From: Ruminiclostridium sp.
GTDB lineage: Bacteria; Bacillota; Clostridia; Oscillospirales; Ruminococcaceae
Assembly: GCA_017942025.1 (NCBI GenBank)
Contig: JAGAVH010000039.1
Coordinates: 2,290 to 26,289, forward strand
Reading direction: 5' to 3'
DNA length: 24,000 bases
Positions 2,396-4,862 of the stretch are shown here, piece after piece (within the stretch, counting starts at the first letter, position 1; each line of letters opens with the position of its first letter). A program made the position numbers and the translations under genes. Below the pieces are notes generated by a model. The model searched no databases, was not told where the DNA came from, and was given only the letters and a program-made list of their open reading frames with translations.

Positions 2396-3412
2396 ATGGC
2401 ATCAACAGATATAGGAATTGATTTAGGTACAGCTAATATTATCATTACACTTGGCAACAAGGGCATTGTTGTTAATGAACCCTCTGTGGTAGCTTATGAT
2501 AAGAAAAAGCAGTGTGTACTTGCAGTAGGTGACGAAGCATATAAAATGCTGGGAAGAACTCCGGAATATATAGTTGCGGTAAAGCCTTTAAAGGATGGCG
2601 TAGTTTCGGATAACGAAATGACTGAAGCGATGCTTATCGCCTTTATCAAAAAGGTTATCGGCAGAATAGTAAAACCCCGTATTATTCTTTGTGTTCCTTC
2701 CTCTGTAACGGACGTAGAAAAAAGAGCCGTTGTAGAAGCTGCTTTATCAGCAGGCGCAAGAAAGGTATATCTTATTGAAGAGCCTATAGCGGCGCTTATC
2801 GGTGCAGGTATTGATATTTCAAAGCCTAACGGCACAATGGTCGTTGATATCGGCGGCGGTACCGTTGATATTGCGGTGGTTTCCTTCAACGGTATTGTAA
2901 AGAGCGCTTCTTTGAAGCTGGCAGGCAACAGATTCGACTCTGCTATAGTAAAGGGTGTTACCCAGAAGTATAAAATACTTATCGGCGATAAGACAGCAGA
3001 AAACGCAAAGAAGGAAATAGCTACAGTTTATAATCCTACCGGCAAGAATAAGATAACCGTAAAAGGCAGACATCTTATCAAGGGACTTCCTGAGAGCATT
3101 GAGATAAGCGACAAGGATATCTATGAGTTCCTGATTGATGAGGTTACAGAAATCGTTGATAAAATAAAGGGAGTATTCGAACAGACTCCCCCTGAGCTTG
3201 TGGGTGATATTCTTACAAGCGGTATTATTCTGACCGGCGGCGGTGCGTTGTTAAAGGGACTCCCCGAGCTTATATCAAAGACGTTAGGTGCACCCTGCTA
3301 TGTTGCAGACGATCCTATCGAATGTGTAGCCAAGGGTGTACAGAAGGCATTCAAGCACGCCGACGAGCTTTTAGACGGTTTTGAGAAGATCTCACTTTAC
3401 AGATATAAATAA
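2396..3412 (+). CDS. mreB: MreB/Mbl-family actin-like rod-shape protein
   Basis: 338-aa ORF with IGIDLGTANIII, NEPSVVAY and DIGGGTVDIAV actin-fold phosphate motifs. No mreC or mreD follows, so which paralog this is remains uncertain. Confidence 0.9.
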   Translation: MASTDIGIDLGTANIIITLGNKGIVVNEPSVVAYDKKKQCVLAVGDEAYKMLGRTPEYIVAVKPLKDGVVSDNEMTEAMLIAFIKKVIGRIVKPRIILCVPSSVTDVEKRAVVEAALSAGARKVYLIEEPIAALIGAGIDISKPNGTMVVDIGGGTVDIAVVSFNGIVKSASLKLAGNRFDSAIVKGVTQKYKILIGDKTAENAKKEIATVYNPTGKNKITVKGRHLIKGLPESIEISDKDIYEFLIDEVTEIVDKIKGVFEQTPPELVGDILTSGIILTGGGALLKGLPELISKTLGAPCYVADDPIECVAKGVQKAFKHADELLDGFEKISLYRYK

Positions 3413-3450
3413 AAAATTGCGATTTGTCGCTCCGCTTAGGGTTATTGTAG

Positions 3451-3477
3451 CCCCAATCCCCCTAACCCCCTTTCCCC
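3451..3477 (-). other. Canonical four-tract G-quadruplex motif (i-motif on the + strand)
   Basis: + strand reads CCCC AAT CCCCC TAA CCCCC TTT CCCC. - strand reads GGGG AAA GGGGG TTA GGGGG ATT GGGG, i.e. four G-runs of at least 4 with 3-nt loops. Confidence 0.7.
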
Positions 3478-3486
3478 TGATGGAAA

Positions 3487-3867
3487 TATATTTCGGCAAA
3501 ATAGGATTTTGCCGAAATGGTCGCAGTTCTGCGAACTGCTGGGGCTGGGAGCAGTCCGATAGGACTGCGTAACTTTCTGAAAATGCAATTTTCGGAAAGT
3601 ATGGGCTCGCCGCCCCTGCAGCAGTCTGAAAGACTGCGACGGTCTTTAGACCAATGACCTCTGCTTGGGGCTTCGCCCCAGCTGTCCAACGGACAGCGAC
3701 GCCCTTCAGGGCAATGAAACATCCCGTTTATATCGGCGTTTGTGGGCAATTTATCGCAATGTTTTAAATCATCAACTGTAGGGGGCGACCTCCCGGACGC
3801 CCCGCCGCCGAAAACAGTGGTCCGCATGACTGCGACCATTTTTGAAATCTTTGATTTCAAAAATATA
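3487..3867. repeat. GC-rich hairpin-dense element with structured terminal inverted repeats (MITE/BOX-like, or a large structured ncRNA)
   Basis: The two ends are inverted copies. Each has TATATTT, a 12-13-bp AT-rich hairpin (3490-3518 and 3838-3864), and an identical 13-nt core AAATGGTCGCAGT (3515-3527; reverse complement at 3829-3841). About 10 further local hairpins lie between them. The region is visibly more GC-rich than the flanking genes. Confidence 0.6.
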
Positions 3868-3928
3868 GGAATCTGCCCACGGGTGCAAACCGCCGTCAAA
3901 CCGTAAGTTATCGTTCTTTAAACAAAAA

Positions 3929-3958
3929 AGCTGAAATGCAGATGCATTTCAGCTTTTT
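3929..3958. terminator. Bidirectional rho-independent terminator (ends the HTH gene on the - strand and mreB read-through on the + strand)
   Basis: 11-bp stem AGCTGAAATGC (3929-3939) / GCATTTCAGCT (3944-3954) with loop AGAT. An A-run lies upstream (a T-run on the - strand) and TTTT lies downstream. Confidence 0.8.
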
Positions 3959-4199
3959 AATATATCTCTTGTTCAAGATTTTTAAACAGGTCACAATCGA
4001 AAAATTCTATGACTGTCATCTGTAGCCCGTCACATAATTTTTTAATGGTGACGATACCTATATTTTTTGCTTTTTTATTTACTATATCATTAACGGTTGA
4101 CTGGGTTACTGCGGATATGGTGCATAGCTTGTTTACTGTTATATCACGTTCCTTGCAAAGCTCTAAAATGCGTTCTGCAACTGCCTCGGAAATATACAT
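3957..4199 (-). CDS. Small XRE/Cro-C1-type helix-turn-helix transcriptional regulator (80 aa)
   Basis: ITVNKLCTISAVTQSTVNDIVNKKAKNIGIVTIKKLCDGLQMTVIEFF matches the HTH_3-type pattern seen in small clostridial regulators. RBS AAAGGA lies 9 nt upstream of the ATG. The gene is divergent from a promoter bearing palindromic operators. Confidence 0.85.
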   Translation of the reverse strand: MYISEAVAERILELCKERDITVNKLCTISAVTQSTVNDIVNKKAKNIGIVTIKKLCDGLQMTVIEFFDCDLFKNLEQEIY

Positions 4200-4248
4200 A
4201 TCATCAAATCCTTTCTAATTAGATGATAGCATAATTTTATGCAATTTA

Positions 4249-4313
4249 TTAACGGTTAACCGTTGACATTTGAATATTTTTGTGATATAATCAACTTAAC
4301 GGTAAACCGTTAA
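4249..4313 (+). promoter_or_regulatory. Consensus sigma-A promoter flanked by two 18-bp palindromic operators (likely XRE repressor sites)
   Basis: -35 TTGACA (4263-4268), 17-nt spacer, extended -10 TGATATAAT (4283-4291). O1 TTAACGG-TTAA-CCGTTGA (4249-4266) overlaps the -35. O2 TTAACGG-TAAA-CCGTTAA (4296-4313) covers the expected transcription start. Confidence 0.75.
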
Positions 4314-4353
4314 TAAAATTTAGTGATTACGTGAGTAATCGGGAGGTAAAATT

Positions 4354-4815
4354 ATGGAAAAATCAAGATCTGCAAATTCAATCCGCAGCTTTGGAGCATC
4401 GTTATTGGTAGTAGGATTTATTATTACAGCGATAGTTGCTGTATCTTTCTGGATAACAGGCGCTTCAATCGAGTATTCGATAAGAAATATATTTCAGCCA
4501 ATGTTTGTCGGAATGGGCATCGGCACACTTGTAATCGGTGGTACCGTATCTGTATTTTTGTATTTTTTATTTGTTTCGTTGTCCGAAATCGTAAAAAATA
4601 CTGAAATTACCCAGCAGTATGCAAAGAAAATTTATGAATCAGGTAACGATGATGATAGTAGTAAAAATTCTGCTACAGCTTTACATAGCAATAATTCTGG
4701 TAGCTTCAGACAGCAGGCTTTATCAGCGAACAACAATCGTTGGACTTGTCAGAAGTGTAATTCACAAAATTCTTATGCAGATATGTTCTGCCAGAATTGT
4801 GGCGCAAACAAGTAA
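4354..4815 (+). CDS. Hypothetical membrane protein with C-terminal zinc ribbon (153 aa)
   Basis: RBS GGGAGG at 4341-4346. Two hydrophobic segments (ASLLVVGFIITAIVAVSFWI and MFVGMGIGTLVIGGTVSVFLYFLFVSL), a low-complexity N/S/D-rich linker, then WTCQKCNSQNSYADMFCQNCG (CxxC-x11-CxxC). Confidence 0.8.
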   Translation: MEKSRSANSIRSFGASLLVVGFIITAIVAVSFWITGASIEYSIRNIFQPMFVGMGIGTLVIGGTVSVFLYFLFVSLSEIVKNTEITQQYAKKIYESGNDDDSSKNSATALHSNNSGSFRQQALSANNNRWTCQKCNSQNSYADMFCQNCGANK

Positions 4816-4819
4816 CACA

Positions 4820-4848
4820 AAAGCTCAGATGCGGTGCATCTGAGCTTT
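4820..4848 (+). terminator. Hairpin terminator of the membrane/zinc-ribbon gene
   Basis: 13-bp stem AAAGCTCAGATGC (4820-4832) / GCATCTGAGCTTT (4836-4848) with loop GGT. The trailing T-tract is weak (TTTAAACTTTATAAT). Confidence 0.6.
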
Positions 4849-4862
4849 AAACTTTATAATCC

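Follow-up and report, generated by a model that had tools for sequence, protein, structure and literature searches.

A modular repeat, probably of REP/BIME type, between mreB and its terminator in an uncultured lineage of gut Clostridia

The region downstream of mreB was analyzed in a 24,000-nt stretch of DNA (the window) from Ruminiclostridium sp. (assembly GCA_017942025.1, contig JAGAVH010000039.1). The source genome, G000, is a metagenome-assembled genome (MAG) whose 80 contigs total 2.53 Mb, with a completeness of 83%. In the window mreB, whose identity was borne out by a Pfam search, is followed by 496 nt of repeated DNA and then by a terminator hairpin (Table 1). An initial annotation, made from the sequence alone, had described part of this region (3487-3867) as a GC-rich, hairpin-dense element with terminal inverted repeats (TIRs) of about 50 bp, and had offered two readings: a mobile element resembling BOX or a miniature inverted-repeat transposable element (MITE), or a large non-coding RNA (ncRNA). 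The structures that it listed are indeed there. The two terminal hairpins, 3490-3518 with 13-nt arms and 3838-3864 with 12-nt arms, are both 100% complementary; the 13-nt inverted core is exact and sits in a longer inverted pair (3515-3541 / 3815-3841, 27 nt, 81%); and the internal hairpins are found both in the sequence and in the minimum free energy (MFE) fold. The G+C content is 0.51 compared with 0.42 for the genome. The open reading frames (ORFs) of 145 and 63 aa called across the element are spurious, as suspected: they are made of repeat sequence and have no Pfam match. Relative to dinucleotide shuffles, the fold of the 496-nt region has a z of -9.2 on the + strand and -7.5 on the - strand.

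The same locus was compared in four sister species (G041-G044), whose MreB orthologues are 95-98% identical in amino acids to the MreB of the window. The mreB 3' site is empty in all four (loci L031-L035): a terminator homologous to 3925-3958 begins 2-14 nt past the mreB stop codon. In more distant relatives, used as outgroups, a terminator also lies directly 3' of mreB. Because sisters and outgroups have mreB and then directly the terminator, the 496 nt are read as an insertion; and because the hairpin directly follows the mreB stop in the sisters, it is taken as mreB's own terminator, which the initial annotation had thought missing. The empty-site alleles that it had suggested looking for in relatives therefore exist, and this outcome favours a mobile element. 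The comparison indicates that 3414-3909 was inserted between the stop codon and the terminator of mreB in the lineage of this species, and that the terminator was pushed about 500 nt away in the process. The sister genomes with an empty mreB site carry the repeat family elsewhere, with 38 to 60+ matches each. The 14 nt between element and terminator (3910-3923) have no counterpart in the relatives, and the only candidate target-site duplication, TAAA, is at most ambiguous in its A-rich surroundings.

The limits of the element were set by BLAST of the whole spacer against G000. Repetition sets in at 3414, a single base past the mreB stop codon, and repeat coverage spans 3414-3909, so that 3487 and 3867 are not its ends. 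We take 3414-3909 as the element because a 16-nt end motif sits at each extremity (Table 1). The right-end consensus CGWCAAAYTWCAATTT is the inverted complement of the left-end consensus AAATTGWARTTTGWCG. With at most one mismatch, this motif has 90 matches in G000 and 7 in a shuffled genome, and it encloses 12 complete copies of 212-669 nt, all ORF-free. A further repeated module (consensus approximately CACATTGRTTGTATGTC) lies just beyond the motif in some copies, on either side; it flanks copies at C66:27813, C37:12267, C69:2439, C35:60545, C12:28012 and C47:4784-4995 of G000. Since this module lies outside them, the end motifs are not always terminal.

Between these ends the copies share a constant frame. 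The order and orientation of the head and tail do not change from one copy to another, and the interior is variable. The head contains the 5' half of a hairpin, CCCCCTTTCC/GGAAAGGGGG, which is interrupted by the next module. It also contains a C-tract, which is present about 40 times in the genome and is not special to mreB, because it belongs to the conserved part of the head. Simple copies measure about 220-300 nt, and the window copy is enlarged by five nested units of 37-55 nt (units a to e). A direct repeat with 60-nt spacing (3619-3657 / 3679-3717) is visible in its interior. A paralogue at C34:21428-21821 is 88-92% identical to the window copy.

Table 1. Features of the mreB 3' region, in window coordinates
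Feature	Coordinates	Strand or orientation	Remarks
mreB	2396-3412	+	338 aa; Pfam MreB_Mbl PF06723, E 1.7e-125; stop codon 3410-3412
Full mosaic repeat	3414-3909	+	496 nt; per-base repeat coverage, paralogues, empty sister sites
Left end motif	3414-3429	+	AAATTGCGATTTGTCG; family consensus AAATTGWARTTTGWCG
Family head	3414-3486	+	26-43 BLAST matches per base; aligned with simple copies
C-tract in head	3451-3477		four G-runs on - strand, G-quadruplex-capable
Head-to-head doublet a+b	3487-3604		in loop of head hairpin CCCCCTTTCC/GGAAAGGGGG; about 11-15 copies
Unit a	3487-3541	inverted	"left TIR" of the initial annotation
Unit b	3551-3604	direct	
Unit c	3621-3657	+	GCAGTCT-GAA-AGACTGC, GAC, GGTCT-TT-AGACC, AATGA; present or absent among paralogues
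Unit d	3681-3717	+	stems differ from unit c by compensatory changes only; clean 37-nt indel relative to simple copies
Family tail	3723-3812	+	31-40 matches per base
GTAG-tagged REP	3778-3803	+	in tail; 35 copies in G000
Unit e	3813-3866	+	"right TIR" of the initial annotation; first hairpin decayed; about 6 copies, several solitary
Degenerate right end motif	3894-3909	+	CGTCAAACCGTAAGTT; family consensus CGWCAAAYTWCAATTT; aligned right ends of 30+ copies
Terminator hairpin	3925-3958	bidirectional	16-bp perfect arms; original mreB terminator (repeat search and sister comparison)

The window element has 117 BLAST matches in G000. Using a library of 14 copies, we counted at least 73 arrays, which cover 14.9 kb or 0.59% of the assembly; 29 of them end at contig edges, among the 160 contig ends of G000, and the count is for this reason a lower bound. 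More generally the genomes used here are MAGs, in which repeats are under-assembled, so all counts are minimal ones, and genomes of the same genus are not independent of each other. The BLAST search against the own genome, which the initial annotation had proposed as a check, returned the many dispersed copies expected of a mobile element without the duplications: no consistent target-site duplication was found across 17 copies. The family is carried by the five-species clade formed by G000 and G041-G044, whose members differ by insertions. G045, a fifth relative and a more distant one, lacks the family. The element had no match in 24 further genomes of the genus, nor in 16 from other families of the order, and the plasmid and phage collections contained nothing similar to the element. 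The flanks of one copy (L005) fall on different contigs in the relatives.

The position of the arrays relative to genes was analyzed with crude gene calls (ORFs of at least 90 aa, repeats masked). In 26 of 34 cases the head faces a co-oriented gene at its 3' end, and the downstream gene is convergent in 22 of 31. Only one of the 20 fully flanked arrays lies between divergent genes. Several other copies likewise sit just upstream of a terminator hairpin. Orientation gave no signal relative to GC skew (19/30) or to the local majority gene strand (17/33).

The tail carries the signature of a repetitive extragenic palindrome (REP). GTAG-tagged REPs have GTAG or GTGG at 0-2 nt 5' of a hairpin, and here the tetranucleotide GTAG (3778-3781) directly abuts a stem starting at 3782. 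The hairpin (3782-3803, 22 nt) is an imperfect GC-rich palindrome within the 20-40 nt usual for such REPs; an A.A mismatch separates 6 bp from 2 bp, and the loop is TCCC. The mismatch is conserved among the REPs, and the stem variants CC/GG and CG/CG are compensatory. The basal stem is one base pair short of the 7 bp that the search rules in Quentin et al. 2018 (PMC6006769) require. With at most one mismatch, 35 copies were identified in G000 and none with a reversed-pattern control; all are in intergenic arrays except two, which lie within ORFs resembling REP-associated tyrosine transposases (RAYT). Inverted REP doublets are present at two other loci only (C34:26003-26147 and C55:2708-2852). 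The window element contains a single REP and no such doublet, the doublet at 3487-3604 being made of untagged units and not of GTAG REPs.

A search of G000 with Pfam Y1_Tnp gave no match. In the sister genome G044, a 243-aa ORF matches Y1_Tnp, and its best match is the NCBIfam REP-associated tyrosine transposase (E 3.8e-16, 59 bits). Using this protein as query, at least two RAYT-like genes, broken at contig edges, were found in G000: two N-terminal parts, 94% identical, at contig ends (C32:12775-13109 and C52:13184-13518), and one C-terminal part, also at a contig end (C58:31624-31813). The RAYT-like ORFs of G000 contain the tail REP, identical and in frame (NVGGDVLDAP segment). Full-length homologues in the genus measure 170-243 aa and match NCBIfam REP_Tyr_transpos with E of about 1e-16; they have the HIH/HVH motif, the C-terminal Y motif and in-frame REPs. 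In G000, the assembled parts are the N- and C-terminal ones. Four homologues were examined: three have the REP of the respective genome at their flanks, and those of G015, G052 and G044 also contain it in frame. Their arrangements are diverse: in G015 the gene has the REP of its genome on both flanks and two copies inside; in G052 one REP lies in frame and another immediately downstream of the gene; in G044 there are two within the gene and one downstream of it; and in G010 three lie upstream and none within. In the G044 gene (L126:1243-1974, contig C25), we also observed that the in-frame REPs are in opposite orientation and accompanied by a complete two-hairpin unit, which includes the 13-nt core AAATGGTCGCAGT and lies between duplicated DYE(Y/H)KNNLVGA segments.

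The distribution of REP types was then compared with that of RAYT-like genes in a 61-genome sample of the genus. The tail REP is amplified only in G000 (35 copies), G077 (25) and G052 (12); the closest RAYT-like genes are those of the same three genomes. Another REP type, GTAGGGGCGAACTGCGTTCGCCC, reaches 107 copies in G046 and is also amplified in G049 (16) and G015 (5), all three RAYT-like-positive. The third type, GTAGGGGAGGGGCTTGCCCCTCCC, has 27 copies in the RAYT-like-positive G010 and is also amplified in G048 and G017, both negative with the N-terminal RAYT-like query. Altogether, an amplified REP type is present in 7 of the 10 RAYT-like-positive genomes and in 2 of the 51 negative ones. 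Within the clade, G044 has the head and the units in common with G000; its tail REP has a different stem, which matches the REP inside its own RAYT-like gene. These sequence comparisons indicate that the REP and the RAYT-internal REP co-vary between species and that amplification tracks RAYT-like genes.

To describe the interior of the copies, we examined the two-hairpin units. Each opens with a 7-bp hairpin, GCWGTNN-loop-NNACWGC; GRC (or GTR) separates it from a second hairpin, whose sequence and length are free, and WATR closes the unit. About 65-70 such units are present in G000. The first stem occurs in five variants, all perfectly complementary, and the second hairpins are diverse and paired without exception. 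Units sit inside or beside hairpin loops; they are inserted, for example, in the REP loop, in the head hairpin, in the CCGCCG hairpin and in the RAYT-like gene of G044. In the window copy, comparison with C66:68088 and C69:2641 places unit e in the loop of a CCGCCG-AAGG-CGG hairpin; elsewhere in the family, a unit interrupts the REP hairpin itself.

The supposed 50-bp TIRs turned out to be two of these modules, found independently elsewhere. In G000 about 12 matches to the left arm were counted and, apart from those in C76 and C66:58658, each adjoins the family head. The right arm has about 6 and stands alone in C11, C47, C69 and C72. Both arms occur together in the window copy only, and it follows that no closing helix is conserved. 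The 13-bp long-range helix is there by chance, formed by two paralogous modules that happen to be oppositely oriented. Assignment of the units to CGTC-tagged REPs was considered and rejected: the (C/G)G(T/C)C tag fits loosely, and the stems of the published families are 8-9 bp long and begin with A-T pairs, with loops that measure 4-5 nt.

About 12 family copies run on 3' into AAAATCCATCAATTGCC and then into an array of mini-hairpins with CATCAC linkers. One such array (L002:1906-1991, contig C34 of G000) has a sub-threshold match to the Gut-1 RNA motif RF01706 (29 bits, E 0.002), and the family may share its repeat ecosystem with the Gut-1-like arrays. A broader idea, which we hold tentatively and consider rather doubtful, is that the units form an independent class of ultra-small mobile modules that insert in or near hairpin loops and are moved by an HUH-type enzyme reading the left/right-hairpin pair, and that Gut-1 arrays belong to this ecosystem and are not RNA genes.

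Taken together, the results make it probable that 3414-3909, inserted 3' of mreB, belongs to a modular, non-coding repeat family that is specific to this lineage and of the type of REPs and bacterial interspersed mosaic elements (BIMEs), and is not a dedicated RNA gene. As for its spread, the balance tips somewhat towards RAYT-driven movement in trans with later mosaic shuffling. The RAYT-like Y1/HUH transposase of the genome would act on the single-stranded GTAG hairpin, as TnpA-REP of E. coli does, and spread the family in trans; recombination among hairpin modules would then shuffle the copies into mosaics. From its place upstream of the terminator, the element would be co-transcribed with mreB as a structured 3' untranslated region (UTR) of about 500 nt, and mreB transcripts would cross these stable hairpins before reaching the original terminator. 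An effect on mRNA stability, if any, would presumably be a by-product and not a dedicated function. A hairpin with a T-run at 3817-3843, inside the element, resembles a terminator; it corresponds to the first, decayed hairpin of unit e and could stop some mreB transcripts ahead of the original terminator.

Several points weigh against this explanation. The RAYT-like genes of G000 are incomplete in the assembly, with the HUH-containing middle part missing, and the NCBIfam scores, at 58-60 bits, are under the curated 80-bit cut-off. The co-occurrence counts of REPs and RAYT-like genes are not phylogenetically independent, and MAGs under-assemble repeats. We infer transposition by the RAYT-like protein and cleavage of the REP from sequence patterns. 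Each element has one REP, compared with the inverted doublet of REPINs and classical BIMEs. Composites of at least 400 nt, such as the C34 copy, are copied whole, which known RAYT models do not explain. Orientation is linked neither to GC skew nor to gene strand, and lagging-strand insertion of the IS200/IS605 type might show such a link. Finally, the conserved 16-nt ends hint at a different, TIR-recognizing enzyme.

This last hint leads to a classical MITE, bounded by the TIRs 3414-3429 and 3894-3909, in which a DDE-type transposase would read AAATTGWARTTTGWCG and the REP and hairpins would be passengers. The excess of the end motif over the shuffled genome, the 12 complete ORF-free copies that it encloses, the copying of entire composites as units and the empty orthologous site in relatives would all agree with it. 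We nevertheless find such a MITE quite unlikely: consistent target-site duplications are lacking in the 17 copies, end-motif pairs up to 3 kb apart enclose no ORF in G000 (at 83% completeness), the exact motif is scarce in G044 (5 matches) despite 60+ family matches there, some copies continue into a repeated module beyond the "ends", and the right end of the window copy is degenerate. The MITE/BOX-like proposal of the initial annotation is upheld as to the kind of element, dispersed, modular, ORF-free and absent from sister sites, and fails as to limits, TIRs and target-site duplication. A further alternative dispenses with a dedicated enzyme and invokes replication slippage, template switching and gene conversion between hairpins, the RAYT-like genes being a mere target. 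De novo arrival at a site that was unrelated and previously empty, such as the 3' end of mreB, is left unexplained by these processes, as is the between-species co-variation of the REP and the RAYT-internal REP, and this makes them a very unlikely source of the family, even if the copies are mosaic and the RAYT-like genes themselves hold inserted modules. The site C35:60210-60545 (L014) also speaks for such processes: it is filled in G041 as well, where the right junction agrees and the internal content differs.

The ncRNA reading, a single large structured RNA or regulatory mreB 3' UTR closed by the pairing 3515-3527 / 3829-3841, draws on the very strong predicted fold (z of -9.2), the long-range helix present in the MFE structure and the biased orientation relative to the upstream gene (26/34). 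The - strand folds nearly as well, as expected of DNA palindromes, and the two arms meet in the window copy only. The locus is absent in every sister species and is not syntenically conserved. The covariance scan suggested by the initial annotation gave no support either: with Rfam 15 there was no match at gathering score in the whole window, and at E up to 1 over 3000-4400 there were chance-level matches only. We consider this reading hardly credible, and retain the REP/BIME-type family as the explanation of the element.

Downstream of the terminator, positions 3957-4856 encode a module made of an XRE-type repressor and a zinc-ribbon membrane protein. G041 and G042 have this module and G044 has part of it; G043 lacks it and has a family fragment instead (L034). 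This module constitutes a variable islet beside mreB.

A conspicuous "structured" region is in this way explained as selfish repeat DNA, and two ORFs called across it are flagged as spurious. The repeat is of a known kind among bacteria, found here in a little-studied gut Clostridia lineage. By its insertion a core cell-shape gene would have gained a structured 3' UTR of about 500 nt in one species only. The family also breaks MAG assemblies, as seen from the 29 arrays at the 160 contig ends of G000, and the five-species clade, with its insertion differences, is a possible setting for studying DNA movement by RAYTs. The less ordinary parts are the nested two-hairpin units and the link to Gut-1-like arrays, which could lead somewhere new.

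The family can be compared with several known systems. BOX of Streptococcus pneumoniae and Correia/NEMIS of Neisseria are also modular, non-coding, hairpin-rich and co-transcribed elements without a transposase of their own; BOX has the order A-Bn-C, and Correia elements have 26-bp TIRs and a TA duplication. The likeness is one of description: to our knowledge, their sequences are unrelated to the present family and have no GTAG REP. The 3' arrays of many paralogues resemble the Gut-1 RNA motif (RF01706), and the window element has no Gut-1 part. GTAG-tagged REPs and BIMEs with RAYT/TnpA-REP have been described in E. coli, Pseudomonas and Stenotrophomonas (PMC3733652; PMC3116915). Di Nocera 2013 (PMC3733652) and Bertels 2017 make no mention of Firmicutes, and Clostridia appear there in passing only. 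The present family differs from these REPs and BIMEs in having one REP in each element and no inverted doublets, in setting this REP within a conserved scaffold of at least 220 nt (head, weak inverted end motifs, nested units), and in its host, an uncultured Oscillospiraceae lineage known from animal-gut MAGs. It is like them in that GTAG abuts an imperfect GC-rich hairpin, that tens of copies are extragenic and lie mostly after gene 3' ends and between convergent genes, that the REP forms mosaics with other conserved motifs (here head, tail, ends and units in variable combinations), and that a Y1/HUH gene is associated with the same REP. In-frame REPs within tnpA-REP genes were described by Quentin et al. 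2018 (PMC6006769) as a unique feature of subclass 2.4, which corresponds to RAYT group 4 and abounds in Cyanobacteria and Bacteroidetes; this property of the genes reported here was therefore already known. The genes of G000 are only partly assembled, and the likeness rests on features and not on phylogeny. These features are the presence of REPs in frame inside the gene as well as on its flanks, the consecutive G-C pairs at the foot of the REP stem, and the variable insertion region of the protein.

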